Source: Thermoanaerobaculia bacterium
Lineage (GTDB): Bacteria > Acidobacteriota > Thermoanaerobaculia > Multivoradales > JAGPDF01
Assembly: GCA_046331385.1 (NCBI GenBank)
Contig: JAXLQW010000001.1
Coordinates: forward strand, 497,596 to 561,595
Direction: 5' to 3'
DNA: 64,000 nucleotides
The position numbers and the translations under genes were made by a program. The notes beneath the pieces are model-generated. The model ran no database searches. It saw nothing but the letters and a program-made list of their open reading frames with translations, and was not told where the DNA came from. Shown piece after piece: positions 30,035-52,188 of the stretch; the stretch's first letter is position 1; each line of letters begins with the position of its first letter.

Positions 30035-31123
30035 CTATCTCAGGATCTCGAGCTTCTTCCACCCCGCGCCCTCGGTGAATTCCCTCATCGAGAAGACCCA
30101 GACCACGACCCGCTTCGAGGCCAGGCCGTCCCCACGGCGCAGCAGGTTGATGCGTGCCGGGGTCGAGCCGCCGTTACGCACCGCTTCGTAGTCGACCGGA
30201 AAGCCGAGCTCCTTGGCGAGGTGGTCGGGCAGTCCCGCTCCCTTGGCTTGCAGGTCGCCGCCGGTGTGGAACGACAAGACGTAGCTGTCGCCGAGCAGGA
30301 GCACCGGGCTCTTGCGCCAGGTCTTGAGGAGACCTCCGCCGGGCTGCTCGACGACTTCGATGTCGGCCTCCTCGCGTTGCGGCCGGGGCTCGGGCAGGTC
30401 GGTCCACAGATCGCCGGTGAGGACGCGGCGCTCGACACTGACGAGATACGGGGTCGCGGGGCTGGGGGGGCGCCACTCGCGCTCGCCGATCGCCGTCGCG
30501 ATCGCGTGCGCCGCGATCGCGATCCCGCGGCCGACCCAGTGCGCGTCTTGGCGGCAGAAGAGCGGCGAGCCGTCGTCGCGCGCTGCCAGGAACGGCTCGG
30601 TCAGGTCGAGCACCTTCACTCCGCGCTCGCCGAGCAGGCGGTAGAAGCGCTGGTGGTAAGGGTCGAGCCGCGTGCCGGCAGCCAGGCGCGGAATCTCCTC
30701 GGGGAGCTTGTCGGCGTAGATCGCGGCCCGCGCCGGCACCGGAACCACGAGGAGATCGATGCCGTGGCGCGCAAGCTGCGCCTGGAAGTCGAGGATGGCC
30801 GGGAGCGGGTCGGCGTCGGCGGGGTTCTCGGCGCGACTGGCGCGCGCCGCCGCCTCGCCCCAGAACTCCCCTGCCGCGAGGGCGCGCAACTCCGGGGCGT
30901 AGAAGAGCCAGCCGTCGCGCCCGGTGACGACCGGTTGGCCGGTCGCCTCGGCCCGCGCCGCGAGCGCGGCGAGCTGGCCGAGCGGCAGCTGGTCGGGCGG
31001 TGGCGTGGCCACGGTCGTGCGATGGCAGGCGGTCGCCGCGAGCGCTGCGACGGTCGCGAGCGTCGCGAACGCGGCGATCGCGGCGAATCGAGCCGCGCGC
31101 GCGCGGTGGATCCTCGTCGTCAT
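30035..31123 (-). CDS. AlgJ/AlgX-like SGNH-fold protein (polysaccharide O-acetylation accessory)
   Basis: Start trimmed to the ATG at 31121-31123 (MTTRIHRARAARFAAIAAFATLATVAALAATA, a signal or TM segment). It overlaps the upstream stop as ATGA. AlgJ/AlgX signature DAHW (CRQDAHWVGRGIAIA) and LLLGDSYVLSFH are present. Confidence 0.65.
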   Translation of the reverse strand: MTTRIHRARAARFAAIAAFATLATVAALAATACHRTTVATPPPDQLPLGQLAALAARAEATGQPVVTGRDGWLFYAPELRALAAGEFWGEAAARASRAENPADADPLPAILDFQAQLARHGIDLLVVPVPARAAIYADKLPEEIPRLAAGTRLDPYHQRFYRLLGERGVKVLDLTEPFLAARDDGSPLFCRQDAHWVGRGIAIAAHAIATAIGEREWRPPSPATPYLVSVERRVLTGDLWTDLPEPRPQREEADIEVVEQPGGGLLKTWRKSPVLLLGDSYVLSFHTGGDLQAKGAGLPDHLAKELGFPVDYEAVRNGGSTPARINLLRRGDGLASKRVVVWVFSMREFTEGAGWKKLEILR

Positions 31124-32766
31124 CGCGTCTCGTCCTGCGGTTCTCCCCAGTAGACGGGGAGCGAGCGCCACTCGGCGCCCTCGAGCTCGAGGCGTTGCGT
31201 CGCGCCGAGGTCGCCCTCGACTTCGCCCCACGGGCGCAGTCTCCAGAGCTGCGTCGCTCCGGCCCGGGTCGCGGCGGCCGGGGCGAGGCGTCGATCGCGG
31301 TAGGCCCAGCCGTAGAGCAGGGCCCTGCCGCCTCCGGCGGCCGGCGGCAGCTCGACCTCGAGCGCCAAGAGGGCGTCGGCGTAGGGCGAGCGTGCGGGAT
31401 CGGGAATCGCGGCGACGCGCACGACGCGGACCGTGACCGGGCGGGGACCGGTGGCCACCGCCGATCGCGGCGCCGCCGCCACCGCCGGCAGCTCGACCGG
31501 CGGCCAGTCGCCGATCGCGAGCAGGCGCTCGGCGAGCTCGTAGATCACCACCCGTGCGCTCGCCAGGCGGGAAGCGGCGAGCGAAGGGACCAATTGGAGG
31601 CCGACGGCGCCTTCCTGCGCGTGGCTCGCGACCGGGAGCCCGAGATGGTAACTGAGCTGATCGGCGAAGCCGGCCCCGCCCTCGACCCCGGGCGTGCGCG
31701 CGAAAACGGTCGAGAAGCTGTCGCCCAGAAGGAGCACCGGCGCCTCCGGCGTCCGATCGGCCGCGAAGGGCGCCCCGGAAGGGTCGCGCACCGCCGCGAG
31801 CTCGATCGTCTCGGGGAGCAGGCCGGATCCGGAGAGGCCGAGCAGACGGGCGAGATCGCCCGCGCGCTGCGCCGCCGCGGCGCGGCGGCTGAACGTCCCA
31901 AGCGGCTCGTCGGCGAGCCCGAAGCGCGGGCGGAGAAATCGCGCCAGATCCCGCGCCACGCGGTCCATGCCGGCCGGCGACCAGTGGGTGTCGGCGCGCA
32001 GGAAGGGGTCGGTTCCCGCGATCGCCAGCTCGACCAGGCCCGGCGTCGGATCGAACACCGCGATGCCCTCGCTCTCGAGCCGGCGCCGGAAGCGCTCGAT
32101 CGACGGGTTGCGCAGCCGACCGCGGCGGTCGGCGAGCCGCGGACGCAGATGGTCGGCCTCGATCGACACCTTGGGCGGGATGGGAACCACGACCAGCGCG
32201 ATCCCGCGCCGCGCGAGCTGAGCGGCGAAGTCGGCCAGCGCGGGCAGAGGATCGGGAGCCCCTCCCGGATGGGGACCACGGCCAGCGCGCCGCGCGGCGA
32301 GGTAGCGCGGCTCGAGGAAGCCCGGTCCGACCACGGCCTCGAGCTCGTCCTGGTAGAAGAGCCAGCCGTCGCGCCCGACCAGGACCTGCGTGTTGCCGTA
32401 GCGCAGGGCGCGTGTGAGCCAGGCCTGCGCCGCCGGGCGCAGAGCGTCGGCGAGCGCCGACTCCTGCCCGATCCGCGTCTCGAGCGCCGCGAGCGCGCTC
32501 GCCACGCGCCGGTTCGCCGCGCTGGCACCGCGCTCGCGCACGAGCTCTCGAAGCTCGGAGAATCCGGGCATTCCGGCCGCGCCCTCCCCGAGAAGGCGGC
32601 TGGCGCCCCCGCGCGCGACCCGGGCGACCTCCGCCGTCGCGCCCGCCAGGCAGGCGAGCAGGAAGAGCCCGACGAGGGCGAAGCGCGCGCCGGCGCCGAT
32701 GCGGGTGGCGTCCATCTCGGCCATGGCTTCGGCCTCACGGGCCCCGGGGTGGATGGCGCGGCTCAT
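31120..32766 (-). CDS. AlgJ/AlgX-like SGNH-fold protein with an N-terminal membrane anchor; paralog of the downstream gene
   Basis: DTHW signature (FLRADTHWSPAGMDRVARDL) and LLLGDSFSTVFAR are present. Start chosen at the ATG at 32764-32766, 30 nt after the algI stop. Alternative ATGs at 32724 and 32715 are in frame, so the start is uncertain. Confidence 0.6.
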   Translation of the reverse strand: MSRAIHPGAREAEAMAEMDATRIGAGARFALVGLFLLACLAGATAEVARVARGGASRLLGEGAAGMPGFSELRELVRERGASAANRRVASALAALETRIGQESALADALRPAAQAWLTRALRYGNTQVLVGRDGWLFYQDELEAVVGPGFLEPRYLAARRAGRGPHPGGAPDPLPALADFAAQLARRGIALVVVPIPPKVSIEADHLRPRLADRRGRLRNPSIERFRRRLESEGIAVFDPTPGLVELAIAGTDPFLRADTHWSPAGMDRVARDLARFLRPRFGLADEPLGTFSRRAAAAQRAGDLARLLGLSGSGLLPETIELAAVRDPSGAPFAADRTPEAPVLLLGDSFSTVFARTPGVEGGAGFADQLSYHLGLPVASHAQEGAVGLQLVPSLAASRLASARVVIYELAERLLAIGDWPPVELPAVAAAPRSAVATGPRPVTVRVVRVAAIPDPARSPYADALLALEVELPPAAGGGRALLYGWAYRDRRLAPAAATRAGATQLWRLRPWGEVEGDLGATQRLELEGAEWRSLPVYWGEPQDETR

Positions 32767-32795
32767 CGCGCGCCTTGGGGGGAGCTCGACCACGG

Positions 32796-34250
32796 TCAGA
32801 AGATGAAGTAGATGAAGGGATTGAAGTCCTGCGTCGAGAGCGCGACCAGAGCCAGAGCCAGCACCGCGAGGGCGGCCGTGGCGCGCAGCGCCCCGATCTG
32901 GCGCGTCCAGGTCCAGCTCTGCGGCGCGGCCCAGACGACGAGGGCGGCGAGCCCGAAGCTCACGGCGAGGTAGGGGCCATACAGGAATCCCGGCAGGAGC
33001 GCCGCGCCGGGCGCGGTCGCGCCGGCGCCGAAGAGCGCGCCGAGCATGGAGAGCGCGCCGGCGAAATCGGCGGCACGGAAGAAGACCCAGCCGAGGAGCA
33101 CCAGGGCGAAGACCACGCCGATCCGCAGCGGGCGCGGCATCCAGCCGTAGAGGCGCTCCACGCCGATCGCGCGCTCGGTCGCCAGCAGGCCGCCGTGCAG
33201 CCCGCCCCAGACGACGAAGTTCCACGACGCGCCGTGCCACAGGCCGCCGAGCAGCATGGTGGCCATCAGGTTCAAGTAGGTGCGCGCCGCGCCCTTGCGA
33301 TTGCCGCCGAGCGGGATGTAGAGGTAGTCGCGCAGCCAGGTCGAGAGCGAGATGTGCCAGCGCTGCCAGAACTCGGTGATCGAGCCCGCGCGATACGGCG
33401 AGTCGAAGTTCTTCGGGAAGACGAAGCCGAGCATCAGGGCGAGGCCGATCGCCATGTCGGAATAGCCCGAGAAGTCGAAGTAGATCTGGAAGCCGTAGGC
33501 GCCGAGACCGTACCAGGCGTCGACCGTACGCACGCCCGCGGCGGCGAAGACCGTGTCCGCGATCCGCCCGCAGGGATTCGCCAGCAGCACCTTCTTCGCC
33601 ATGCCGAGGGCGAAGAAGGCGACGCCGCGCGCGAAACGGGCGAGAGACGGCGTCCGCGTCCGCAGCTGGTCCTCGAGCTCGGAGAAGCGGACGATCGGCC
33701 CGGCGACGAGCTGCGGGAACATCGACACGAAGCAGGCGAAGTCGACGAAGTTGCGCAACGCTCGGGCATGACCGCGGTAGACGTCGATGGCGTAACTCAT
33801 CGAATGGAAGGAATAAAAGCTCAGGCCCGCCGGCAGAGCGATGCGCAGCGTCTGTTCGATCGCCGCCTGCGGCAGCCCGAGCGCCGCGACGACGCCGTTG
33901 AAGCTGCCGACCGCGAAGTTGAAGTACTTGAAGAAGCCGAGGATCGCGAGGTTCGACGACAGCGAGACCACGAGCGCCAAGCGCTGGCGGGCGTCGCGTG
34001 CTCCTCCCGGCGGGAGCAGCGGCACCGCGGAGCGCGCCCAGGGCGTTGTTCCCGCGAGAACCAGGCCGGCGACGTAGTCGATCGCCGTCGCGCCGAGCAG
34101 CAGCAGGGTGAAGGCGGGATTGGTCCAGCCGTAGAAGAGGTAGGACAGGGCCGTCAGGACGAGGTTGCGCGCCCGCCGTGGCGCCGCGAAATAGGTCGCC
34201 AGCGCGAACGGCAGGAAGTAATAGAGGAAGACGTTGGAGCTAAAGACCAC
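32796..34250 (-). CDS. algI: MBOAT family membrane O-acyltransferase (AlgI-like)
   Basis: 484 aa, multi-TM. N-terminus [21 protein letters not shown] and the conserved His-containing segment ([24 protein letters not shown]) are typical of AlgI/DltB MBOAT proteins. Confidence 0.85.
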   Translation of the reverse strand: [484 protein letters not shown]

Positions 34251-35645: not shown

Positions 35646-36206
35646 TCAGGCGCGGCGGCGGCGGAGCAGCAGGACGGAAGCCGCGGCGAGAGCGAGCGCC
35701 AGCGCCGCCAGTCCGGCGAAGTTCAGCGTCGGCACCTCGAACGGGCTGTCGATGATGCGGACTTCGAGGGTGTAGGGACCGATCGCCGAGCCGAAGCCAT
35801 CGGCGCGCAGGACGTAGTCGCCGTCGAACGGGACCACGAAGCTGATGATCGAGCTGTCGAAGGCATTGCAGTCGACGCCGTTGGGATAGTCGTCGGAGCC
35901 GAATCCGTCGTCGTTGTAGACGTCGGCGTTGGCCGTGTCGCTCGAGTCGCTGCCCGGGAAGTAGGCGGAGAGGACCGGATCGAGCGGCCGGTTGCCGTTG
36001 CCGGGCACGGTCTCGTCGCACACCAAGGTCGCCTGCACCTTCTGGTAACCCTTGAGGCCATTCAGGTTGTAGAGATCGTACTGGGCGCCGCTGAGGATGT
36101 TGCCGGTGTAGGTGAGGACCTGATTCGCGGCGGCGGGAGAGGCGAGCCAGAGGCTCGCGATGCCGAGGAGCAGGACCAGGGTTCCGATCGTGACGCGCTT
36201 GGACAT
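35646..36206 (-). CDS. Secreted protein with a pre-peptidase-C-terminal-like domain and an IPTL-CTERM-type sorting signal
   Basis: Signal peptide MSKRVTIGTLVLLLGIASLWLASPAAA. C-terminus ...EVPTLNFAGLAALALALAAASVLLLRRRRA, i.e. [IV]PTL followed by a TM helix and an Arg cluster. The GDYVLRADGFGSAIGPYTLEV segment resembles the PPC domain. Confidence 0.7.
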   Translation of the reverse strand: MSKRVTIGTLVLLLGIASLWLASPAAANQVLTYTGNILSGAQYDLYNLNGLKGYQKVQATLVCDETVPGNGNRPLDPVLSAYFPGSDSSDTANADVYNDDGFGSDDYPNGVDCNAFDSSIISFVVPFDGDYVLRADGFGSAIGPYTLEVRIIDSPFEVPTLNFAGLAALALALAAASVLLLRRRRA

Positions 36207-36283: not shown

Positions 36284-38047
36284 TCACAGGCCGGTGACTC
36301 GAATCACCTCTTCGTAGGTGGTGATGCCCTCGGCGAGCTTGCGCAGCGCCGACTGGCGCAGGGTCTTCATGCCGTTTTTGACCGCTTCGCGCTTGATCTC
36401 CGGCGCATCCGATCCCGACACGATGAGGGCCTTGACCCCGTCGTCGATCGCCAGGATCTCGAAGATGCCGGCGCGCCCGCGATAACCGGTCCCCCGGCAT
36501 TCGTGGCAGCCCTGGCCCTCCTTGACTTTGATCTTCTTGCCCGGCGGTACGGCGAGGCGCAGGGTGTTGGCCTCGTCCGAGCCGAGCGCCCGCTCGACGA
36601 CGCAGTGCGGGCAGATGCGGCGCACCAGGCGCTGCGCCATCGAGCCGATCAGGGTCGAGCTGATCAGGAAGCGCTCGACGCCGAGGTCCACCAGGCGGCT
36701 GATCGAGGTGGCGGCGTCGTTGGTGTGCAGGGTGGAGAAGACCAGGTGGCCGGTGAGCGCCGCCTGGATGGCGTACTGCGCCGTCTCGCCGTCGCGGATC
36801 TCGCCCACCATGATGACGTCCGGGTCTTGGCGCAGGATGTGGCGCAAGGCGCCGGCGAAGTCGATCCCCACCTTCGGCTGCACGGCAGTTTGGTTGAAGT
36901 CCTCGATCACCATCTCGATCGGATCCTCGATGGTGGTGATGTTCTGCTCGCGGTTGGCGATCGCCTTGAGCGCCGAATAGAGGGTGGTCGTCTTGCCGGA
37001 GCCCGTCGGTCCGGTGATCAGGATGATGCCGTGCGGGCGGCTGATGAACTCGTTGAAGACCATCTGCTCCTCGGGGTAGAAGCCGAGGGTCGCGAGATCC
37101 TGGGTGAGCACGTCGGGGTCGAAGATGCGCAGCACCGCCTTCTCGCCGAAAGCGACCGGCAAGGTCGAGACGCGCAGCTCGACCTCCTTGCCGGCGCGCA
37201 TCGTCTTGACGCGGCCGTCCTGCGGGCGGCGCTTCTCGGCGATGTCGAGACGGGACATCGTCTTGACGCGCGAGATCACCGCGTTGTGGACGATCTTCGG
37301 CATCGTCTGGATGTCGTGCAGCACGCCGTCGATGCGGAAGCGGATCAGGCTGAACTCGCGCTTGGGCTCGACGTGGATGTCCGAAGCGCGCGAATCGAAG
37401 GCGTGCTGGAGCATGAACTCGACCGCGTTGACGATGTGCTGATCGCTCGCCTCGATCTCGGCCTCGTTCTTCATCCGCACCAGCTGCTCGAGGTTGCCGA
37501 GGTCGACGCCGGCCGTGAGGTCGCGCTCGGCGCGCTTGACCGAATGGCGCAGACCGTAGAACTCGGTGATCGCGCGCAAGATCTCGGGCTCGGAGGCGAC
37601 CACCAACTGTAGGTCGCGTCCGGCGATGCGGCGGAACGAGTCGATGCCCTCGATGTCGAACGGATTGGCGCAGGCGACGCGCAGCTTGCCGTTGGCCATC
37701 GCGATCGGGATCATCCGGTGGCGGCGGGCGAAGGGACGGGAGATCTTCGACTCGATCAGATCGGCGTCGAGGGTCAGGGAATCGATGCGCACCACCTCGA
37801 GGCCGGCGTCGACGGCGAGGGCGCGCGCGATCGTCGTCTCTTCGATGATCGTCCCCGGTTCGCGCAGATTCGGCAGGCGCAGGCTGGCGATCAGGTCGTA
37901 GGCGACGGCCTTCTGTTCGTAGGTCGTGGCCGAGCGGACGCGGTTGGGGAGGTTGCGCTCCTCGCGCTTGATGTCGGCCGCCTGGGCGTCCGTGATCATG
38001 CGCTGGCGGACGAGGACGTCGGCGACGAATCCTGCGGCGAGCACCAT
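36284..38047 (-). CDS. GspE/PilB family secretion ATPase (type II secretion or type IV pilus assembly)
   Basis: 587 aa. Walker A motif GPTGSGKTTTLYSAL. N-terminal T2SS-E_N-like domain. Tetracysteine motif CPHC...CHEC. Aspartate box and His box are present. Confidence 0.85.
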   Translation of the reverse strand: MVLAAGFVADVLVRQRMITDAQAADIKREERNLPNRVRSATTYEQKAVAYDLIASLRLPNLREPGTIIEETTIARALAVDAGLEVVRIDSLTLDADLIESKISRPFARRHRMIPIAMANGKLRVACANPFDIEGIDSFRRIAGRDLQLVVASEPEILRAITEFYGLRHSVKRAERDLTAGVDLGNLEQLVRMKNEAEIEASDQHIVNAVEFMLQHAFDSRASDIHVEPKREFSLIRFRIDGVLHDIQTMPKIVHNAVISRVKTMSRLDIAEKRRPQDGRVKTMRAGKEVELRVSTLPVAFGEKAVLRIFDPDVLTQDLATLGFYPEEQMVFNEFISRPHGIILITGPTGSGKTTTLYSALKAIANREQNITTIEDPIEMVIEDFNQTAVQPKVGIDFAGALRHILRQDPDVIMVGEIRDGETAQYAIQAALTGHLVFSTLHTNDAATSISRLVDLGVERFLISSTLIGSMAQRLVRRICPHCVVERALGSDEANTLRLAVPPGKKIKVKEGQGCHECRGTGYRGRAGIFEILAIDDGVKALIVSGSDAPEIKREAVKNGMKTLRQSALRKLAEGITTYEEVIRVTGL

Positions 38048-38091
38048 GCGCGCAGTTTACCGGAGGCGCGACGCCGCGGCAGCGGCTGATA

Positions 38092-38964
38092 GTGTCCGCC
38101 GACCGTATCGCCGCGATGCCCGCGCTCTCCGCTCTCTCGCTCGCCGTGGCCTCGGCCTTCGCTTGGGCCGGCTTCGACCTCGCGCGGCGTTACCTCGCGG
38201 CCCGCGTCTCGGCCTGGACGCTGGTTCTCGGCGTGACCGCCGGGGCGATGCCGCCGCTCGTCGCCTGGGGGGTCGTCGCCGGCGAGTGGCGGATCGGACC
38301 CGGCTATGCGCTTCCCGCGGCGGGCTCGGTGGTGCTCAACCTGGGCGCGAACTTCGCGTACTCGCGCGCCTTTCAGCTCTCGCCGCTCTCGGTCACCCTG
38401 CCGATGCTGTCGCTGACGCCGGTGTTCACGGCGCTCTTCGGCGCAGCCTTTCTGCGGGAGTCGATTCCCGCCGTCGGCTGGGCGGCGATCTTCTTGGTGG
38501 TCGTGGGCGCGGCGTTGCTCGGTCTGTCGCGCGACTTCCGCTTCGAGCCGGGGAGCGCCCTGATGTTGCTGGTGGCGCTCCTCTGGTCGGCGGCGCTGCT
38601 GCTCGACAAGCTGGCGCTGCGCGCCGGCAGCGCCGACGTCCACGCCTTGGTGCTCAACGGCGGAGTGGCGATCGGCGCCCTGGCGGCGCTGGCGGCGACG
38701 CGCAGGCTGGCCGACGCCCGCGCTCTCGGCCGCCATCTGCCGCTGCTCGCCGGCGCGGTGCTCTGCGGTGCGATCGCCCTGACCTTGCAACTGCTGGCGC
38801 TCGCCGCGGTGCCCGTCGGGCTGCTGGAGACCCTGAAGCGCGGGGTCGGCGGGACGCTGGCGGTGGTCTGGGGAAGGGCCTTCTTCCGCGAGCCGGTGAC
38901 CGCGCGCAAAGTGCTGGCGGTGGTTGCCCTGGTGGCCGGCGTGGCGGTGTTGCTCAACCGTTGA
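38092..38964 (+). CDS. EamA/DMT superfamily transporter
   Basis: 290 aa with ~10 TM helices in the two-repeat EamA architecture. It is divergent from gspE with only a 44-bp gap. Confidence 0.65.
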   Translation: MSADRIAAMPALSALSLAVASAFAWAGFDLARRYLAARVSAWTLVLGVTAGAMPPLVAWGVVAGEWRIGPGYALPAAGSVVLNLGANFAYSRAFQLSPLSVTLPMLSLTPVFTALFGAAFLRESIPAVGWAAIFLVVVGAALLGLSRDFRFEPGSALMLLVALLWSAALLLDKLALRAGSADVHALVLNGGVAIGALAALAATRRLADARALGRHLPLLAGAVLCGAIALTLQLLALAAVPVGLLETLKRGVGGTLAVVWGRAFFREPVTARKVLAVVALVAGVAVLLNR

Positions 38965-39007
38965 ACCGATCGCCCGCGCGGCAGATACTCCCCGTCACAA
39001 CTTCGCC

Positions 39008-39035
39008 TTGCGCTGCGCCGCCCGGGCCCTATAAT
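39008..39035 (+). promoter_or_regulatory. Consensus-like sigma70 promoter (TTGCGC-N16-TATAAT) upstream of the giant DUF11 protein gene
   Basis: TTGCGC at 39008-39013, a 16-nt spacer, then a perfect TATAAT at 39030-39035. This is striking in ~70% GC sequence. It lies ~125 nt upstream of the ATG at 39162. Confidence 0.45.
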
Positions 39036-39161
39036 GGCCCCTGGTTGCGTTTCGGACATGTGTCCCAGTGCTGGCGCCCGGCGCGACGGAGCGCCGCGAT
39101 CGGCGATTTCCTGCGACAGCCCGGCCGGATGCAGGGTGGCGAGCTCGGAGAGGTGAATCTG

Positions 39162-42100
39162 ATGACCAGGCGGACGGGGAACCGGTTGACCGCGCTCGAT
39201 TTGGCCTTGCGCAGCCTCGCCTGGACCGCGTTCTCCGTCCTGATCGCCTCGCCCCTGCTCGGTTCGGGCGAATCGGTCCCGTTCAACGCAGTCCACGTCC
39301 CTCCCGGCGCGACGGTCACCATCACCTTCGACGTCGACGTCGACGATCCGCTCGGCGTCTGCGCCACCGCGATCTCGAATCAGGGCAGCGTCACTTCGAC
39401 CAACCACGCGAGCGTCCTCACCGACGACACGGCCGTGGGCGGCGGCGCCGACCCGACGGTCACGGGGCTCGACGCGGTCGACCTCGCGATCACCAAGACC
39501 GACGGCGTCGCGAGCGAGACCCCCGGCACCGCGATCACGTACACCATCACCGCCTCGAACGCCGGACCCTCGGGCGCGACCGGAGCTCTCGTCGCCGACA
39601 CCTTTCCGGCGACGGTCACCGGCGTGACCTGGACCTGCGTCGGCGCCGGCGGCGGCACCTGCGCGGCGAGCGGCTCGGGGAACCTCAACCAGTCGGTCAA
39701 CCTGCCGGCCGGCGGCTCGGTCACCTTCACCGTTTCGGGATCGATCTCGCCGAGCGCCACCGGCAGCCTGACCAACACCGCCACGGTGACCAAGCCGGCC
39801 GCGGTGCTCGAGTGCAACCTGGCGAACAACTCGGCGACCGACACCGACACCCTGAGCCCGCAGGCCGACGTCTCGATCACCAAGACCGACGGCGTCGCGA
39901 GCGTCGACGCCGGGAGCAACACGACTTATACGATCACCGCTTCGAACGCCGGCCCGAGCGACGCGCCGAACGCCGGGGTGGCCGACACGTTCCCGGCGGA
40001 GATCACCGGCGTCGCTTGGACCTGTGTCGGCGCGGGTGGCGGTACCTGCGCCGCGAGCGGCAGCGGCAACCTCAGCCAGAGCGTGAGCCTCCCGGCCGGC
40101 GGCTCGGTCACCTTCACCGCCGTCGCCTCGGTGTCGGGCTCCGCGACCGGATCGCTGGTCAACACCGCGACGGTCTCCTCGGGCGCCGGCGTGACCGACC
40201 CGGCCCCCGGCAACAACAGCGCCACCGACACCGACACGATCAACCCGGTGGCGGATCTCGCGATCTCGAAGAGCGACGGCACGACGACGGTGGTCCCCGG
40301 GCTCGCGACCGCGTACACGATCGTGGCCTCGAACGCCGGCCCGGCGACGGCGACCGGCGCGACGGTGGCGGACACCTTCCCGGCGGCCTGCGCGTCGGTG
40401 ACCTGGACCTGCGTCGGCGCGGGTGGCGGTACCTGCACGGCGAGCGGGTCGGGCAACATTTCCGACAGCGTCAATCTCCCCTCGGGCGGCAGCGCGACCT
40501 ACACCGCGGTCTGCACCACGGCCGCCAACGCGAGCGGCAGCCTCTCGAACACCGCCACCATCTCCGGCGGCGGCGTCAGCGACACGAACGCCGGCAACAA
40601 CTCGGCGACCGACACCGACACCTTCCTGCCGCTCGACTTCGGCGACGCCCCGGACGCCTCGATCGGCGCGCCCTGGGCCTATCCGACGAAGCTGGCGAAC
40701 GATGGCGCGCGCCACGGCGTCAACGGCCCGATCGCGCTGCGCTTCGGCGCCCAGATCGACACCGAGACCGACGGCCAGCCGACGGCGAACGCCGACGGCG
40801 ACGACGCGAACCCGGCGCTCGCGCCTGACGACGAGGACGGCATCACGCTGCCGACCTTCCTCGTCGCCTGCGAGAGCGCGAGCGTCACCGTCAACGCCTC
40901 GGCGATCGCCAAGCTCGATGCTTTCGTCGACTTCAACCGCGACGGCGACTTCGCCGACGCGGGCGAGAAGATCTTCAGCAGCCAGGCGCTGGTCGCGGGC
41001 GCGAACCCGCTCAACTTCACCGTTCCCTGCGGCGCCACCCCGACCGCGCTGACCTTCGCCCGCTTCCGCATCTCGACCGCCGGCGGCCTGTCGTACGACG
41101 GCGTCGCCGCCGACGGCGAGGTCGAGGACTACCCGGCCGCCGTTCGCGGTCTCGACTTCGGCGATGCCCCCGTCGTCTACGCGACGCTCTTCGCCGACAA
41201 CGGCGCCCGCCACGTCGTCACCGGTAGCGGCCCGGTGCTCGGCGCGGTCGCTCCGGACACCGAGGCGGACGGGCAGCCGACCGCCGGCGCCACCGGCGAC
41301 GACGCCAACGGGGTCGACGACGAGGACGGCGTCAGCTTCACCTCGCCGCTGCTGCGCGGGCAGAACGCCACGGTCACCGTTACCGCCTCGGCGGCCGGAG
41401 TGCTCAACGCCTGGCTCGACTTCAACGGCGACGGCAACTGGACCACCGCCGGCGATCAGATCTTCACCAACCAGGCGCTCGCCGCCGGGGCCAACCTACT
41501 CACCTTCGCGGTGCCGGCGACCGCGACGACCAACCTATCGACGGTGTCGCGTTTCCGGATCGCCACCGCGCCCGGCCTGTCGTTCAACGGCTTGGCGCAG
41601 AACGGCGAGGTCGAGGACCATGCGGTGGCGACGGCGGCCGAGGCCGACCTCTCGATCGCCAAGAGCGACGGTTCCGCGACCGAGGTTCCGGGCACGACGG
41701 TGACCTACACGATCGTCGCTGCGAACGCCGGGCCGGACGCCGCCACCGGCGTCACCGTCGCCGACACGTTCCCGGGGATCCTCTCCGGCTGCACCTGGAC
41801 GAGCATCGCCGCGGGCGGCGCCACCGGCAACGCCGCTGCGGGGAGCGGAAATATCTCCAACGGCGGCATCAACCTGCCGAGCGGCGCCTCGGTCACCTAC
41901 ACCGTGACCTGCACGATCGCCGCGAGCGCCACCGGGACTCTGACGAACACCGCCACGAGCTCGGTACCAGTCGGTCTCAACGACCCGGTCCCGGGCAACA
42001 ACAGCGCCACCGACGCCGACACGCTGACCCCGCAGACCGATCTCGCGGTCACCAAGACCGACGGCTCGGCGACGGAGGTTCCGGGCACCTCGGTGAGCTA

Positions 42101-44159
42101 CACCATCGTCGCTTCGAATGCCGGCCCGTCCGACGCCGTCGCGGCTTCGGTCGCCGATTCCTTCCCGGCGACGATCACCGGCGTCGCCTGGACCTGCGTC
42201 GGCGCCGGGGGCGGGACCTGCCCGGCGAGCGGCAGCGGCAACATCTTCGCCAGCGTGAACTTGCCGGTGGGCGGTTCGGCGACCTTCACCGCCACCGGCA
42301 CGATCTCGGCCGCGGCGACCGGGAGCCTCGCGAACACCGCCACCGTCGCCGCGGGCGCCGGGGCGACCGATCCGACGCCCGGCAACAACAGCGCCACCGA
42401 CACCGACACCCTGACGCCGCAGGTCGACCTCGCGATCAGCAAGAGCGACGGCTCGGCGACGGAGGTTCCGGGGACGCCGGTCACCTACTCGATCGCGGTC
42501 GGCAATGCCGGCCCCTCGAACGCCGTTGCCGCGGTGGTCGCCGACACCTTCCCGGCGGCGATCTCCGGGGTCGCCTGGACCTGCGCCGGCGCCGGCGGTG
42601 GCACTTGCCCGGCCGCGGGCTCCGGCAACCTCAACACCGCGGTCAACGTACCGGTCGGCGGCACGGTGACCTTCACCGCCACCGGCACGATCGCCTCCTC
42701 GGCCACGGGAACCCTGTCGAACACCGCGACGGTCACCGCCGCCGGCGGCACGACCGACACCAACGCGGGCAACAACAGCGCGACCGACACCGACACGCTG
42801 ACGCCGCAGGCGGACCTGCAGATCACCAAGGACGACAGCGCCGACCCGCCGCCGGCGGGGGAGAATCTGGTCTACACCCTCACGGTGCACAACTTCGGTC
42901 CGTCCGACGCCGCCGGCGTCGCGGTGAGCGATCCGCTGCCCGCCGCCGTGACCTACGTCTCCGATACCTGCGGCGGCACCAACACGCCGCCGTGGAGCTG
43001 GACGATCGGCGCCCTGGCGAGCGGCGCGACGGTGTCGTGCGACATCACGGTGTCGATCAACCCGGCGCCGCCGATCTCGATCTCCAACACCGCCTCGGTC
43101 ACCGCGACGACGCCGGACCTGGTCGCGGGGAACAACTCGGATACCGAGACCACGCAGCTCGACGCCATCCCGCCGACGGTCGACAACGTCGATTCGCAGG
43201 CCGGCACCGGCGACGGCACCCTCGCCGACTGCGAGACCGCCACCGCGCCGATCCACCACCTGCTCCTCGCCTTCAGCGAGGCGATGGCGAATCCGCCGGG
43301 CGACGGGGGAGCGAACGACGTCACCAACCCGGCCAACTACCTGCTGGTCAGCGCGGGGGCCGACTTCGACTTCTCGACCACGGCCTGCGGCGGCGCAGCG
43401 GGCGACGACCTCGCCATCCCGGTCGTCGGGGTGGCGTACAACGGCGGGACGGACACCGCGAGCCTCGACCTCGGCGGGGCGCTCGCCCCGGCGCAGTACC
43501 GACTCTTCGCTTGCGACACGCTGACCGATCTCGCGGGCAACCCGCTCGACGGCGACCTCGACACCACGGCGGGGGGAGATTTCCTCCGCCGCTTCCGCGC
43601 CGACTCCGACGACCTGTTCGCCAACGCGCACTTCGACTGCAGCCTGGCGGGTTGGACGGCGAGCGCGCCGGCCCCGGGCGAGGTCACCTGGACGGGAGCC
43701 GAGGACGCCGACGGCGCCGACGACTCGGGCGCCGTGCGCGTCACCAACCTCGCCCCCGGCGTCGACACGAGCTTCGCGCTCGCCCAGTGCTACGACCTGC
43801 CGGCGGCGGTGCCCTACCAGGTGCGGGCACGGCTGCGGCTCGACGCCGCGCCAGGGGTGCTGGTCGGCCTGACGCGCGCCTGCACCTTCTACAATGGCCC
43901 GGCCTGCGCCGGCGGATCGACGACCCAGTCGGACACCGTTCTGCTCGGCAGCACCGGCGGGAGCTGGATTCCGCTGGTCAAGACGGTCACGCCACCGGTC
44001 TCGGCGCTCTCGGCACTGTGCACCTTCCGTTGGGACACGCCGGTCGCAGCGGGTTTCGATTCCTTCCTCGACGCCGCCTTCTTCGGCGCGACGGGGCAGC
44101 TGTTCTCGGACGGCTTCGAGACCGGCGACACTTCACGTTGGTCGGCGACCGTGCCTTGA
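39162..44159 (+). CDS. Giant secreted adhesin-like protein with ~7 DUF11 repeats and GEVED-type motifs, ending in the shared C-terminal tag LFSDGFETGDTSRWSATVP
   Basis: The true start is probably the ATG at 39162 (MTRRTGNRLTALDLALRSLAWTAFSVLIASPLLGSG), which has a ggagagg RBS. Upstream, the ORF is antisense to gspE and EamA. Repeats follow the pattern L[AS]I[TS]K[TS]DG...TYTI.ASNAGPS.A....ADTFPA..TGV.WTC. Interspersed DFGDAPD...NDGARH...GEVED[YH] segments are present. Confidence 0.8.
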   Translation: MTRRTGNRLTALDLALRSLAWTAFSVLIASPLLGSGESVPFNAVHVPPGATVTITFDVDVDDPLGVCATAISNQGSVTSTNHASVLTDDTAVGGGADPTVTGLDAVDLAITKTDGVASETPGTAITYTITASNAGPSGATGALVADTFPATVTGVTWTCVGAGGGTCAASGSGNLNQSVNLPAGGSVTFTVSGSISPSATGSLTNTATVTKPAAVLECNLANNSATDTDTLSPQADVSITKTDGVASVDAGSNTTYTITASNAGPSDAPNAGVADTFPAEITGVAWTCVGAGGGTCAASGSGNLSQSVSLPAGGSVTFTAVASVSGSATGSLVNTATVSSGAGVTDPAPGNNSATDTDTINPVADLAISKSDGTTTVVPGLATAYTIVASNAGPATATGATVADTFPAACASVTWTCVGAGGGTCTASGSGNISDSVNLPSGGSATYTAVCTTAANASGSLSNTATISGGGVSDTNAGNNSATDTDTFLPLDFGDAPDASIGAPWAYPTKLANDGARHGVNGPIALRFGAQIDTETDGQPTANADGDDANPALAPDDEDGITLPTFLVACESASVTVNASAIAKLDAFVDFNRDGDFADAGEKIFSSQALVAGANPLNFTVPCGATPTALTFARFRISTAGGLSYDGVAADGEVEDYPAAVRGLDFGDAPVVYATLFADNGARHVVTGSGPVLGAVAPDTEADGQPTAGATGDDANGVDDEDGVSFTSPLLRGQNATVTVTASAAGVLNAWLDFNGDGNWTTAGDQIFTNQALAAGANLLTFAVPATATTNLSTVSRFRIATAPGLSFNGLAQNGEVEDHAVATAAEADLSIAKSDGSATEVPGTTVTYTIVAANAGPDAATGVTVADTFPGILSGCTWTSIAAGGATGNAAAGSGNISNGGINLPSGASVTYTVTCTIAASATGTLTNTATSSVPVGLNDPVPGNNSATDADTLTPQTDLAVTKTDGSATEVPGTSVSYTIVASNAGPSDAVAASVADSFPATITGVAWTCVGAGGGTCPASGSGNIFASVNLPVGGSATFTATGTISAAATGSLANTATVAAGAGATDPTPGNNSATDTDTLTPQVDLAISKSDGSATEVPGTPVTYSIAVGNAGPSNAVAAVVADTFPAAISGVAWTCAGAGGGTCPAAGSGNLNTAVNVPVGGTVTFTATGTIASSATGTLSNTATVTAAGGTTDTNAGNNSATDTDTLTPQADLQITKDDSADPPPAGENLVYTLTVHNFGPSDAAGVAVSDPLPAAVTYVSDTCGGTNTPPWSWTIGALASGATVSCDITVSINPAPPISISNTASVTATTPDLVAGNNSDTETTQLDAIPPTVDNVDSQAGTGDGTLADCETATAPIHHLLLAFSEAMANPPGDGGANDVTNPANYLLVSAGADFDFSTTACGGAAGDDLAIPVVGVAYNGGTDTASLDLGGALAPAQYRLFACDTLTDLAGNPLDGDLDTTAGGDFLRRFRADSDDLFANAHFDCSLAGWTASAPAPGEVTWTGAEDADGADDSGAVRVTNLAPGVDTSFALAQCYDLPAAVPYQVRARLRLDAAPGVLVGLTRACTFYNGPACAGGSTTQSDTVLLGSTGGSWIPLVKTVTPPVSALSALCTFRWDTPVAAGFDSFLDAAFFGATGQLFSDGFETGDTSRWSATVP

Positions 44160-44208: not shown

Positions 44209-45102
44209 ATGCGGGGAGGCGAGTTGAACGAATCGACCGGTCGGGAGGCGAGGTGGGTGACGGCGAGGCGGCACCGCCGAATGCTGGGTGTTTCGGCCCT
44301 GGCGGCGCTGTGGGCGACCGGCGCCGTAGCGCAGGCCGACTCGGCGCCGGTGGTGCGCTTCCGCGCCGAGCAGCGCGCCGTGGCGACGGTTCCGCCGCTG
44401 CCGCCGACCTCGACGTTCCCGGTGCAACTGGTCCTCGACGACGACAGCTTCGAGGGCACACTCGGCGTGGCGAGCGGCCAGAACGCCAAGCAGTTCCTCT
44501 TCTTCGAGCGCTTCGGGCCGGTGCCCGGCTTCACCCTGCAGGAAGTCTGGATTCTCTTCCCGGGCGACGCCCCGGTCGGCGGCGCGATCGAGATCGTGGT
44601 CTTCGAGGACAGCGACGGCGATCCGTCGAACGGCGCAACGTTGCGCGCGGCTTTCGCGACCACGGTGTCGGCCAACGACGGCAACACCTTTTCGGTCTAT
44701 CCGTTGCCGGCGCCGCTCGCCTTCGATTCCGGTCGCGAGGTGCTGATCGGCGCCGTGCCGCGCTTCATCCAGAGCGGCGTGACGCCGTTCCTCTTCCCGG
44801 CGGCGATCGACGGCACCGCGAGCCAGGGGCGCTCCTGGCTCGCGGTCTGGCTCGGCGACCCGCCCGATCCGCCGCTGCTGCCGGCGGACCAGATCACCGC
44901 GCCGCTCGACGACTTCCAACCCGGCAACTGGATGATTCGCGGCTTCGGCACCGGCGTGAGCCCGCTCGAAGTTCCGGCGCTCGGACCGGCCGGGCTCGCC
45001 GCGCTCGCGGCGCTGCTCGCGGCCGGCGGACTCGCTCTGCTACGACGTCGGGACGGCGCGCGGATCGCGATGGGGAAGCACGACGGAGGAGGTCTCGAGT
45101 GA
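44209..45102 (+). CDS. Secreted hypothetical protein with an IPTL-CTERM-like C-terminus (VPALGPAGLAALAALLAAGGLALLRRRDGA...)
   Basis: The start is ambiguous: ATG 44170, 44209 or 44281 are all in frame, and 44209 has a gaggga RBS. Signal-like segment MLGVSALAALWATGAVAQA. A C-terminal TM helix plus RRR is followed by an unusual 15-aa tail. The stop overlaps the downstream GTG (GTGA). Confidence 0.5.
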   Translation: MRGGELNESTGREARWVTARRHRRMLGVSALAALWATGAVAQADSAPVVRFRAEQRAVATVPPLPPTSTFPVQLVLDDDSFEGTLGVASGQNAKQFLFFERFGPVPGFTLQEVWILFPGDAPVGGAIEIVVFEDSDGDPSNGATLRAAFATTVSANDGNTFSVYPLPAPLAFDSGREVLIGAVPRFIQSGVTPFLFPAAIDGTASQGRSWLAVWLGDPPDPPLLPADQITAPLDDFQPGNWMIRGFGTGVSPLEVPALGPAGLAALAALLAAGGLALLRRRDGARIAMGKHDGGGLE

Positions 45103-50120: not shown

Positions 50121-50642
50121 ATGGCCGATCCCTTCGTCGCCGAGATCCGCATCTTCCCGTTCAACTTCGCGCCCCGAGGCTGGGCGTGGTGCGACGGCCA
50201 GTTGATGCCGCTCTCCCAGAACACCGCTCTGTTCTCCCTGCTTGGAACGACCTACGGTGGGGACGGAAAGAGCACCTTCGGATTGCCCGATCTCCAGGGG
50301 CGGGCGCCGATGCACCCCGGTCAGGGCCCCGGCCTGTCGTTGCACGATCTCGGCGAGATTTCCGGCAGCGAGACGATCACCCTGCTCGAGAGCGAGATTC
50401 CAACCCACTCCCACCAGATGCGAGCCGACGTGGTGGATCTCGCCGACACGAACGTCGCGAGCCCCAACGCGAGCTTCGCTCTGTCGGCGGGTGGAACGTT
50501 GTACCAGGCGGCGTCGAACGCCACGGCTTCCGACCAGGCCCTCGCCCCCGCCGGCGGCGACCAGCCGCACAACAACATGCAGCCGTACCTGACGTTCTAC
50601 TTCAACATCGCGCTGCAGGGAGTCTTCCCGCCGCGGACCTGA
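50121..50642 (+). CDS. Phage tail collar domain protein, paralog 3 of 3
   Basis: N-terminus MADPFVAEIRIFPFNFAPRGWAWCDGQLMPLSQNTALFSLLGTTYGGDGKSTFGLPDLQGR. Confidence 0.8.
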   Translation: MADPFVAEIRIFPFNFAPRGWAWCDGQLMPLSQNTALFSLLGTTYGGDGKSTFGLPDLQGRAPMHPGQGPGLSLHDLGEISGSETITLLESEIPTHSHQMRADVVDLADTNVASPNASFALSAGGTLYQAASNATASDQALAPAGGDQPHNNMQPYLTFYFNIALQGVFPPRT

Positions 50643-50657
50643 GGAGGGCAACCGGTC

Positions 50658-51395
50658 ATGACGAAATCCGACTCCGGACCAACCGCGGCGCTCTCCGGGC
50701 TCGCCGGCTTCGAGCTCGACCGCCGTTCGCTGATTCTGGCGACCGGAGCGGGCGCGGCGTTGCTCTCTCTCGAGCGCACCGCCGAGGCCGCGCTGCCGGT
50801 GATCTATCCGATGTCCCTCGGCTTCGTCGAGCCGCTCGACGGCGACTCGTTGAAGACCATGCCGTGGAACACCAATCCCGAGGGCACCGCCGTCGAGCCG
50901 GCGACCAAGCTCATCTCGGGCGACCAGAACCTGGCGCTCTCGCCGGTCACGGTGCGTATCGTCGGCCTCTACCCGAGCCTGCCGTGGCCGCAGAAGAACC
51001 GGCTCAACTCGATCGACCTCGACGCCTGCTTCGAACCCGAGGACCCGCAACTGCCGAACCAGATCCCCTTCGCCGCCTGGGGATACCGCCGCCTGCCGGC
51101 GCGCAACTTGTCGCCGCCGATCCACTTCCGCATGGAGATGGGGGTCACCGACGGCTTGGCATTGAAGCTGCGGGTGCAGGACAAGTCGCTGCGCTGGCGC
51201 CAGTACGAGACCCGCTTCACCGTCGATTGGACCGCGGGCATGCCGCGGCTGATGCGCGGCATCTACCTGCTCGGTCTCGACCCCGGCACCTGGGACGACG
51301 GCGGCATGCTGCCGCCGGCGGGCTCGCCGCCGGACTACTCCCGGCGGTCGGTGATCCTCACCGTGGATCCGGTGCCGCTGATGCCGCCGGCGTGA
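50658..51395 (+). CDS. Hypothetical protein with a Tat-like signal, co-operonic with the tail-collar triplet
   Basis: N-terminus ...FELDRRSLILATGAGAALLSLERTAEAA has a twin-arginine-like n-region and an h-region. No recognisable domain. The stop overlaps the next GTG (GTGA). Confidence 0.5.
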   Translation: MTKSDSGPTAALSGLAGFELDRRSLILATGAGAALLSLERTAEAALPVIYPMSLGFVEPLDGDSLKTMPWNTNPEGTAVEPATKLISGDQNLALSPVTVRIVGLYPSLPWPQKNRLNSIDLDACFEPEDPQLPNQIPFAAWGYRRLPARNLSPPIHFRMEMGVTDGLALKLRVQDKSLRWRQYETRFTVDWTAGMPRLMRGIYLLGLDPGTWDDGGMLPPAGSPPDYSRRSVILTVDPVPLMPPA

Positions 51396-51889
51396 ACTCC
51401 GGCCCCCCGCGACCGACGCTGCGCCGCGAGGAGCCGGCCGATCGGCCGTTCGTGGCGCGGGTCTATGCCGCGACCCGCGACGAGGAGCTCTCGCAGGTCG
51501 ACTGGCCGCCGGGAGAGCGCGATCGCTTCGTCAGCCAGCAGTTCGAGGCGCAGCGGGCCTACTACCTCGAGCACTATCCGGACGCGGAGTTCTCGATCGT
51601 CGAGCTCGGCGACGAACCGGTGGGGCGCCTCTACGTCGAGCGCCGGCCGACCGAGATCCGCCTGATGGACATCTCGATTCTCCCCGCGGCGCGCGGCCGT
51701 GGCACCGGCGGAACCCTCGTGGCGCAGCTGCTCGAGGAGTCCCGACGCAGCGGCAAGCCGCTCACCATCCACGTCGAGCGCTTCAACCGCGCGCTGTCGC
51801 TCTACCAGCGCTTGGGGTTCGCCGTGAAGGAGGATCGCGGCGTCTACCTGTTCCTCGAATGGGACCCGGCGCGGGAGGCGCGTGGATGA
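51392..51889 (+). CDS. GNAT family N-acetyltransferase
   Basis: GTG start at 51392 overlaps the upstream stop. The GNAT acetyl-CoA motif is present (ILPAARGRGTGGTLVAQLLEESRR...YQRLGF). Confidence 0.65.
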   Translation: MNSGPPRPTLRREEPADRPFVARVYAATRDEELSQVDWPPGERDRFVSQQFEAQRAYYLEHYPDAEFSIVELGDEPVGRLYVERRPTEIRLMDISILPAARGRGTGGTLVAQLLEESRRSGKPLTIHVERFNRALSLYQRLGFAVKEDRGVYLFLEWDPAREARG

Positions 51890-52188
51890 GTCTCGACGTC
51901 CTGACGGTCGACGATTTCGCGCCGCACGTCGGGGAGGCGATCGATCTCGTGGTCGACGAGCGCCGGGTCGCGGCGGTCCTCGCCTCGGCGCTCCCGGTGG
52001 GCGAGGCGCCGCCGCCCGGATCGGCCCGCCGCTGGACCTTCTCGGTGGTCTTCCGCACCGCCGCCGACGTCCGCCTGCCGCAACGGATCTACGGCGTCGA
52101 GCACCCGCGCCTCGGGCGCCTCGACCTCTTCTTGGTTCCGATCCAGCCCGACGCCGCGGGCAACCTCTACGAAGCGGTCTTCAATTGA
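51886..52188 (+). CDS. Small hypothetical protein (100 aa), translationally coupled to the GNAT gene
   Basis: ATG at 51886 overlaps the GNAT stop (ATGA). Sequence MSLDVLTVDDFAPHVGEAIDLVVDERRVAAV... Confidence 0.45.
   Translation: MSLDVLTVDDFAPHVGEAIDLVVDERRVAAVLASALPVGEAPPPGSARRWTFSVVFRTAADVRLPQRIYGVEHPRLGRLDLFLVPIQPDAAGNLYEAVFN

Follow-up and report, generated by a model that had tools for sequence, protein, structure and literature searches.

A 19-residue C-terminal tail without a membrane-spanning segment recurs on exported proteins of Thermoanaerobaculia and related Acidobacteriota

Why do three exported proteins that otherwise have nothing in common stop at practically the same sequence? 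The question is raised by a stretch of 64,000 nucleotides from a Thermoanaerobaculia bacterium (contig JAXLQW010000001.1, positions 497,596 to 561,595), which is referred to below, at its full length, as the window. Within it, a giant DUF11 protein, a pentahaem cytochrome and an FN3-repeat protein share a short hydrophilic C-terminal tail, hereafter called the tag, which an earlier reading of the same DNA (the original prediction) had taken as the hallmark of a dedicated sorting, secretion or attachment pathway. Translation gave exactly the three tails quoted at that time: QLFSDGFETGDTSRWSATVP in the giant protein (stop codon at 44157-44159), SLFSDGFESGTTYAWGDPQP in the cytochrome (stop codon at 18083-18085), and PLFGDHFESGDLRRWWTTEP in the FN3-repeat protein (minus strand, stop codon at 4024-4026), with the common ending ΦF.D.FE.G....W....P-stop. 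A six-frame search of the whole window for F.D.FE.G retrieved three matches, each of them 18 codons ahead of a stop, and the DNA pattern F-x-D-x-F-E-x-G-x4-W-x4-P-stop was also matched three times, versus 0.00 matches expected from 100 dinucleotide-preserving shuffles. A hidden Markov model (HMM) of the tag, built from 81 sequences that included the three window tails, scored 43.5, 32.5 and 32.3 bits on these tails and 9.4 bits on the runner-up open reading frame (ORF) of the window. The presence of the same tail on three unrelated proteins is thereby confirmed as a real observation. Moreover, the three tails show grand average of hydropathicity (GRAVY) values from -0.39 to -1.02 and no hydrophobic run, in agreement with the predicted lack of a hydrophobic helix.

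Outside the tag, the three carriers proved to be as different as had been claimed. The first is an exported protein of about 1676 amino acids (39129-44159, plus strand; gene call based on GC3, the G+C content of third codon positions), with seven DUF11 and two GEVED domains according to Pfam and a signal-peptide-like N-terminus, MTRRTGNRLTALDLALRSLAWTAFSVLIASPLLG. At its C-terminal side it contains a CBM-like jelly roll (NAHFDCSLAGW...FDSFLDAAFF), followed by a five-residue linker and by the tag (LFSDGFETGDTSRWSATVP plus TGA, 44100-44159; pattern match at 44103-44159), which was also found at the end of P0102, a homologue with DUF11 and GEVED domains. The mechanical ORF of the giant protein opens some 1.2 kb ahead of 39129, the likely start (37926-39128, plus strand); this extension runs across an EamA transporter gene (38092-38964) that is read in a different frame, and consists of Arg/Ala-rich, out-of-frame sequence that is not coding. 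The second carrier is a multihaem c-type cytochrome of 575 amino acids with five CxxCH motifs and a signal peptide (16358-18085, plus strand), ending in LFSDGFESGTTYAWGDPQP plus TGA (18026-18085; pattern match at 18029-18085). It corresponds to U0X73_02165 at NCBI, where it starts at 16400 and comprises 561 amino acids, and it is 100% identical to P0153, from a Thermoanaerobaculia metagenome-assembled genome (MAG). Its signal peptide requires the ATG at 16358 and not the NCBI start, and the consensus of its homologues favours an N-terminal RR plus a hydrophobic segment. The third carrier, an exported protein of 973 amino acids (4024-6945, minus strand), has the signal peptide MAPRSVSAVAGAVAVPLLLSCLLSIGLAPAALA, an N-terminal FN3 domain recognized by Pfam, a long repeat region, and the tag (LFGDHFESGDLRRWWTTEP plus TAG, 4024-4083; pattern match at 4024-4080); an FN3-like segment may be read ahead of the tag, without a Pfam match. 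Signal-peptide-like N-termini were thus seen on all three carriers, as predicted, in the cytochrome only from the ATG at 16358.

A coincidence of this kind could be an artefact: the similarity might be due to chance, the motif might mark the end of a mobile element or of a repeat at the DNA level, or the real protein might continue past a frameshift or a leaky stop. We consider the probability of this negligible. Besides the absence of matches in the shuffles, synonymous codons vary freely in the tags collected from related genomes: the invariant Gly is encoded by GGC (77), GGG (21), GGA (19) or GGT (13), and the invariant Pro by CCG (56), CCC (54), CCT (12) or CCA (8). Mean pairwise identity of the tags is 0.70 at codon positions 1 and 2 versus 0.52 at position 3, and conservation of the tag therefore acts on the protein level. 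Beyond the tag stop, none of the three frames stays open markedly longer than the others (median 26-40 codons), no sign of readthrough or of frameshift into a downstream domain was detected in the post-stop frames of the tag loci, and the genes downstream of the window tags (encoding HMG-CoA reductase, an NMO-family enzyme and an IPTL-like protein) have starts and functions of their own. Based on codon variation and post-stop frame closure, both the DNA-repeat and the readthrough or frameshift readings were rejected.

How widespread is the tag? A scan of one genome per GTDB species, in which the DNA pattern also allowed TGG in the stop position, revealed at least 119 loci with 131 pattern matches, 130 of them with a true stop and only one with TGG. 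Among the matches listed, 104 of the 119 loci (87%) carried an Acidobacteriota label, as counted by hand from record titles. Names belonging to the class Thermoanaerobaculia (including Multivoradales and Sulfomarinibacteraceae) accounted for 48 loci, unclassified Acidobacteriota for 34 and the label "Holophagae" for 22, together with eight loci labelled only "bacterium", five labelled "Deltaproteobacteria" (from two MAGs), one from Polyangiaceae and one from Crocinitomicaceae. Many single genomes contributed several tag loci, with five loci and seven tags in the MAG MFD00032.bin.2.196. A Thermoanaerobaculum sp. MAG is among the tag-bearing genomes (L105), and the few outlying MAGs include P_S1_bin.14, Polyangiaceae 10C-St20 and STL-UNK1. 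The sequence logo of the 129 tags among these matches gave the 19-residue consensus Φ-F-x-D-G-F-E-S-G-D-T-S-A-W-S-x-T-V-P. Conservation extends to positions that the pattern left free: position -18 is aliphatic in 118 of the 129 tags, and Gly at -14 (84%), Ser/Thr at -11 (88%), Thr at -8 (69%) and Ser/Thr at -4 (91%) are likewise conserved, whereas the residues directly upstream of the tags are rich in Gly, Pro, Ala and Ser and resemble a linker. In the protein encoded at L007:1460-2653 (minus strand), a variant with Leu in place of the first Phe, STVLGDGFESGDTSAWSATLP, falls outside the DNA pattern, and the real number of tags must therefore be higher than the pattern count. A word-indexed protein search with a profile of the three window tails yielded only six candidates; other fragments share the same ending. 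TAG was the stop codon behind 57 of the 130 tags (44%), a higher share than among the remaining genes at these loci, where it closed 99 of 332 (30%; Fisher p = 0.006).

In this lineage, the motif is tied to the end of the protein. A relaxed version that requires neither Pro nor stop, F.[DN].FE.G....W, occurred 140 times in the six frames of the 866 kb of listed loci, and the stop followed after exactly five residues in 134 cases, after six to 11 residues in five, and after 44 residues in one, the TGG case. Nine of the 10 occurrences that had not been selected by the pattern were also located within 11 residues of a stop. An estimate free of this selection was obtained from long tags found through homology of the core proteins (n = 78), in which exactly five residues follow the Trp in 78% and Pro is the last residue in 87%. 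Hence, the rule of a Trp, five residues and Pro-stop contained in the original prediction holds for all three window tails and is strong elsewhere, but it is not absolute.

The carriers of the tag have the features of exported proteins. A heuristic for signal peptides, permissive and allowing for upstream starts, was applied identically to tagged and background ORFs, and scored 70 of the 86 tagged ORFs that could be judged as positive (81%), versus 135 of 325 untagged ORFs (42%; Fisher p = 2e-11). In several tagged ORFs that scored negative, a signal peptide was visible by eye. Tagged proteins are thus clearly enriched in signal peptides, although the heuristic did not score one on every carrier. 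Carriers include S8 peptidases with a MAM-like domain, multihaem cytochromes, beta-helix/choice-of-anchor-Q proteins, and LVIVD, FG-GAP and DUF11 proteins, all of them extracytoplasmic kinds. Altogether, these data show that the tag is a recurrent, lineage-restricted terminal module present on multiple carriers among exported proteins.

Does the tag belong to a sorting signal already described? Small C-terminal sorting domains are composed of a signature motif, a transmembrane segment and an Arg cluster, in this order (bioRxiv 10.1101/2023.06.07.544157). The tag resembles tripartite signals (LPXTG/sortase, PEP-CTERM/exosortase, IPTL-CTERM, GlyGly-CTERM/rhombosortase and MYXO-CTERM/myxosortase) in its location at the extreme C-terminus of proteins with signal peptides, and also in being a short conserved signature, restricted to a lineage, with many unrelated carriers per genome and the same slot in homologues. 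In contrast with these signals, it has neither a transmembrane segment nor an Arg cluster, it is net acidic, and it was matched by none of the curated tripartite models (TIGR02595, TIGR04174, TIGR03501 and similar). Indeed, over the 129 tags, mean GRAVY was -0.12, the longest hydrophobic run did not exceed six residues, and 0.22 Lys plus Arg versus 3.1 Asp plus Glu were counted per tag. With two of the three parts missing, the helix and the basic cluster, the tag is not a signal of the sortase or exosortase type, as had been anticipated; lacking a membrane-spanning segment, it would be no substrate for an intramembrane sortase, exosortase, rhombosortase or myxosortase.

Other known systems fit no better. 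The C-terminal domain (CTD) of the type IX secretion system (T9SS) of Bacteroidota represents the closest functional analogy, being a C-terminal signal without a transmembrane segment that is read after export on Sec-exported proteins of diderm bacteria. Nevertheless, T9SS CTDs are folded beta-sandwiches of about 70-100 residues, whereas the tag has 19 residues, is predicted to be unstructured, and is found in Acidobacteriota; no CTD model was among the matches to carriers or tails, and the original statement that the tag is far shorter than a T9SS CTD stands. Dockerins, Ca2+-dependent docking modules of about 60-70 residues with two Ca2+-binding loop-helix repeats, are comparable in being non-membrane C-terminal modules, and orthologous cytochromes (e.g., in Phycisphaerae) carry dockerin-like EF-hand pairs in place of the tag, but dockerins share no sequence similarity with the tag, and PF00404 did not match the tails. 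In chaperone-usher pili and SpyTag-like split-domain tags, an orphan strand completes an incomplete beta-sandwich in trans. Donor-strand complementation of this type provides only a mechanistic analogy, purely hypothetical here, since no receptor with an incomplete domain was found for the tag. The tag also differs from the beta-signal of outer-membrane proteins, in which a beta-barrel protein ends in an aromatic residue, usually Phe, with an alternating hydrophobic pattern, as the last residue of the tag is Pro in 87% and its carriers are soluble multidomain proteins according to Pfam, and from type I secretion signals, which are Sec-independent and lack the N-terminal signal peptide that tag carriers possess. 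Neither Pfam nor NCBIfam (June 2026 release) gave a match to the window tails or to canonical tails at E <= 10. A profile of 81 tags searched against the sequences of the PDB retrieved only chance-level matches (SWD1, MpaA and the start of a T9SS-CTD-containing protein), and nothing relevant was found in the full-text literature on the motif or on sorting and secretion in Thermoanaerobaculia. Assignment to a known family was rejected, as no Pfam or NCBIfam model covered the tails in full carriers, in the window, or in canonical form. In kind, the tag would be a small C-terminal sorting or anchoring signal, and it is a member of no described family.

What the tag may do is best indicated by what replaces it in homologous proteins. 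In the cytochrome family, 120 homologues were inspected out of 3,729 matches, with LW..TGRGAPI.M as the common end of the core. The core is followed by the full tag in 20 of them and by a short form, ΦF.DGFE plus zero to four residues, in 32, while dockerin-like, Asp-rich EF-hand pairs constitute the largest remaining class (no exact count; Phycisphaerae among the sources), IPTL-CTERM-like tails were recognized by inspection in three, and in others the core is either the end of the protein or is followed by one more domain, some 130 residues long. Homologues of the S8/MAM peptidase, whose core ends in GW.[IV]DDV.VQSC, carry the tag in 58 cases, anchors consisting of a transmembrane segment and a basic cluster in 15, and the short form in 12. 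Thirdly, the choice-of-anchor Q domain (NCBIfam NF041518), defined as a domain followed by varied anchors, lies immediately ahead of the tag in L033, L098 and L103 (25.3, 38.8 and 42.5 bits; cut-off, 25). L103 also shows similarities below threshold, with 22.8 bits for CSLREA_Nterm (cut-off, 25) and 33.6 bits for rhombotarget A (cut-off, 295), a family whose canonical members end in GlyGly-CTERM. Hence, on the same cores the tag alternates with IPTL-CTERM, with transmembrane plus basic anchors and with dockerins, and in three independent families it occupies the slot of recognized surface-anchoring or docking modules, which is the strongest computational argument for a role in sorting or attachment.

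Two further kinds of ending were noticed in the S8/MAM family. Many homologues (within P0315-P0385, some labelled Chloroflexi/Chloroflexota) have in the tag slot a short and apparently conserved tail of the form [YF]-[LMF]-P-[LVI]-Φ-Φ-[RKNQ]-stop, as in LVFLPLVLRP, LLYLPLILNN and VYMPLIIRQ, which could be a further undescribed C-terminal motif. In the 15 homologues with transmembrane plus Arg anchors (P0319-P0356), the anchor is preceded by PTAV(T/E)LSS(V/F)E, giving the ending a tripartite look. The short form, ΦΦ.[DN]GF[ED] plus zero to four residues, was present on 44 homologues from the two unrelated families (P0164-P0255 and P0351-P0392; references, window 16358-18085 and L014:3846-7016), with endings such as LLRDGFE, IFSDGFE and IFVDGFDLP directly before the stop, and Dokdonella, Chiayiivirga, Lysobacterales and Vicinamibacteria are named among the sources. 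This ending may be the tag signal reduced to a minimum, or else a different signal. The window itself encodes two small exported proteins with VPTL/VPAL, a hydrophobic helix and an RRRR/RRR cluster (35646-36206, minus strand, and 44281-45102, plus strand), which score just below the cut-offs for IPTL-CTERM (TIGR04174, 18.5 and 20.3 bits versus 20.5; PF18203, 20.5 versus 20.8). One of them is encoded by the gene that follows the giant tagged gene, and the other has a GspE-like ATPase as its neighbour. Since these proteins and the tag coexist in one window, the organism uses at least two kinds of C-terminal signal.

Where does the sequence of the tag come from? A HMMER search with a profile of seven tails against 1.84 billion representatives gave 3,328 matches at E <= 1e-3, and 152 proteins were examined, corresponding to the best 150 of these matches plus P0003 and P0004 from the word-indexed search. 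Forty of the 152 end exactly five residues after the Trp and 22 within 14 residues of it, while 89 have internal copies only, usually two to six and 170-300 residues apart; in 39 of those 89, the last internal copy lies 160-200 residues from the protein end. A domain of about 170-190 residues typically comes after an internal copy. The original prediction had asked whether hits are always C-terminal, and had named as the contrary case a common internal linker found at these ends by chance. A C-terminal location is the rule in this lineage, where 139 of the 140 occurrences are within 11 residues of a stop, but not globally; conversely, an internal location is half true of the proteins examined worldwide and does not apply to this lineage. 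In Pfam, the profiles of Polysacc_lyase (PF14099) and CBM_4_9 match the internal copies from their positions 1-3 onwards. Judged from these alignments, the motif is the first beta-strand of a CBM/MAM-type jelly roll, and the tag is that strand alone plus x-T-V-P-stop: a co-opted common domain strand and not a wholly unprecedented sequence.

This origin raises the possibility that the tail is no targeting signal at all, but a structural remnant, the first strand of a downstream jelly roll that was lost, or a strand that folds back in cis to cap the last domain of its own protein. The consensus ΦF.DGFE.G.(L/T).(A/G)W(S/T) is identical to that of the N-terminal strand of CBM_4_9, PF14099 and MAM-type domains, internal copies are common elsewhere, and in the commonest carriers, as well as in the giant protein of the window, the tail comes directly after the last strand of a jelly roll. 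The tag, however, comprises only the first 17 or so residues of such a domain, followed by x-T-V-P-stop; the complete beta-sandwich of about 130-200 residues that would follow the FE.G....W strand is missing, with the stop five residues past the Trp and no frame open downstream. In S8/MAM carriers, a full jelly roll that begins with an F.DDFE.G..GW of its own is present, and an orphan copy comes after its last strand; the tag also follows folds other than jelly rolls (cytochrome, FN3, beta-helix/choice-of-anchor Q and LVIVD). Independent truncations would not generate the same Pro-stop five residues after the Trp on more than 130 unrelated proteins, nor conserve non-essential positions, and they would not account for a lineage-restricted distribution or for tandem copies. 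Such copies, two or three C-terminal tags about 21 residues apart, were found in 13 of the 152 proteins (P0022, P0034, P0064, P0114 and nine others), indicating that the tag unit is autonomous; the last copy is sometimes incomplete.

Structural models point in the same direction. In the AlphaFold model of the cytochrome (predicted template modelling score, 0.78), residues 320-550 show predicted local distance difference test (pLDDT) values of 77-96, mostly above 80, whereas pLDDT falls to 46 and then to 34 over the last 15 residues, which have no secondary structure. In the model of an S8/MAM peptidase, the jelly roll (pLDDT 88-97) ends with its last strand at residue 1084, and the tag (1086-1104; pLDDT 60, 51 and 38) forms no strand in spite of being only three residues past the domain. 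Packing of the tail in cis was predicted in neither of the two models, which suggest that the tail is a free peptide and not a cis cap. Given this evidence, we regard a remnant or cis cap as quite improbable.

A partner of the tag was sought by all-against-all clustering of the 593 ORFs of the 119 listed loci and the window. Recurrent untagged neighbours were a Ser/Thr kinase-TPR protein (11 loci), a sulfatase-TPR protein (six) and ABC-F (five); they were judged to be generically abundant, not specific, and were rejected as partners. Nothing recurrent near tags emerged from the multi-tag loci or from the genes of the window that resemble a type II secretion system (GspE-like, 36284-38047; pseudopilin-like, 14670-15083). 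The neighbourhood analysis thus agrees with the earlier statement that no cognate processing gene is obvious in the window. With other sorting signals, too, it is rare for the cognate enzyme to be encoded next to the majority of its substrates. Of the dedicated pathway postulated by the original prediction, a selected terminal module in the slot of anchors is retained, but no pathway, receptor or enzyme was found in the window or the loci and, with the multi-tag islands equally silent, the function proposed below remains inferred.

Taken together, we consider it fairly probable that the 19-residue tail is a portable C-terminal address or attachment tag, devoid of a transmembrane segment, of Thermoanaerobaculia and related Acidobacteriota. 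Carriers would cross the inner membrane by Sec, as their signal peptides suggest, and the tail, an acidic and flexible peptide borne by a short linker rich in Gly, Pro and Ser, would then stay free of the folded protein, as predicted by AlphaFold. A putative dedicated component of the periplasm or outer membrane would read it and send the protein to the cell surface or keep it there, a role equivalent to that of IPTL-CTERM, transmembrane plus Arg anchors, GlyGly-CTERM or dockerins on the homologues of other lineages. As the tail has no membrane-spanning segment, recognition would have to take place in the soluble phase or at the outer membrane and, because the tail copies the first strand of a jelly roll, augmentation or complementation of a receptor domain by a beta-strand would be its most likely mode, in which the almost constant spacing between the Trp and the final Pro could act as a ruler.

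Several observations weigh against this proposal. The same sequence is globally an ordinary domain start inside proteins, so that in principle the tag might be what is left of a domain; the rule of Trp, five residues and Pro is incomplete (78% and 87%); signal peptides were scored with a home-made heuristic that is also positive for many background ORFs (42%); and no receptor, protease or translocon was found near tags among the 119 listed loci and the window. In addition, the short form ends elsewhere, which weakens the idea that the free carboxylate of the Pro is read.

The lack of a partner gene in the window and the listed loci would be expected if the acidic tail attached proteins without any dedicated machinery, binding a surface polymer or Ca2+-bridged lipopolysaccharide or exopolysaccharide directly as a minimal adhesive peptide. 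The net acidic character of the tail (3.1 Asp plus Glu versus 0.2 Lys plus Arg) and its aromatic Phe/Phe/Trp triad are compatible with this alternative, as are the replacement of the tag by dockerins in homologues, the avidity that tandem copies would confer, the alginate-type O-acetylation cluster of the window, and the structural Ca2+ site at which the equivalent FE.G strand is situated in jelly rolls of the CBM type. Nevertheless, a near-fixed end (Trp plus five, Pro) and very high positional conservation suit a shaped protein pocket better, and tandem copies are a minority (13 of 152), making direct attachment an unlikely explanation. The tail could also be a C-terminal pro-peptide or quality-control handle, removed during maturation by a periplasmic PDZ-type protease similar to Ctp/Prc, or a mark for turnover, with no addressing involved. 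Its strictly terminal position, its preferred last residue and its flexibility in the models are in line with this option, and the short form ending right after GFE in other lineages could be regarded as a pre-processed end. The last residue of PDZ ligands, however, is usually hydrophobic and not a Pro, the same pro-peptide on more than 100 unrelated proteins is hard to justify, and the presence of surface anchors and dockerins in the same slot of homologues would be left unexplained; we therefore deem this possibility quite improbable.

Going beyond a portable address tag, the tail might belong to an undiscovered surface-sorting or attachment system of diderm Acidobacteriota, independent of transmembrane segments, in which the orphan first strand of a jelly roll docks, through beta-strand complementation, into an incomplete receptor domain of the periplasm or outer membrane, and the short ΦF.DGFE-stop ending of Lysobacterales and other lineages represents the minimal form. 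We put this forward only tentatively, as a proposal with a modest chance of being right; if true, bacterial C-terminal sorting signals would gain a class that is mechanistically new and served by a machinery of its own.

Concerning the rest of the window, its G+C content is 70%, its genes are otherwise ordinary chromosomal genes, and the same gene neighbourhood was also found in a Logan assembly. The alginate-type O-acetylation genes (30035-34250, minus strand) encode two AlgX/AlgJ-like SGNH proteins and an AlgI-like MBOAT protein, and their sequences suggest an acetylated exopolysaccharide. Immediately downstream of the tagged FN3 gene, an HMG-CoA reductase with an N-terminal domain is encoded (2376-3932, minus strand; E = 9e-124), a mevalonate-pathway enzyme in a bacterium. 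A DDE transposase (DDE_Tnp_1_4, E = 1e-53; 25741-26946, plus strand) is located between cytochrome oxidase genes and a glutamine synthetase gene, and the region 50121-52188 (plus strand) codes for a phage-tail-collar-domain protein (Collar and Gp10_C), a 211-amino-acid unknown protein, a GNAT acetyltransferase and a DUF6916 protein.

Small C-terminal sorting signals have more than once opened the way to novel machinery of the cell envelope, as with sortase, exosortase, rhombosortase, myxosortase and the T9SS and, to our knowledge, all known short signals of this kind depend on a membrane-spanning helix and a basic cluster. The tag has neither, yet it occupies the same slot on more than 100 different exported proteins, including proteases and multihaem cytochromes. 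Its sequence suggests a route by which the edge strand of a domain could evolve into a portable signal. The tag HMM and the 19-residue peptide offer a bait for the machinery, and the HMM would improve the annotation of thousands of "hypothetical" metagenomic proteins. Thermoanaerobaculia are a widespread, almost uncultured class of soils and sediments; if the tail is indeed an address tag, their surface-exposed or secreted proteome would become readable from sequence alone.

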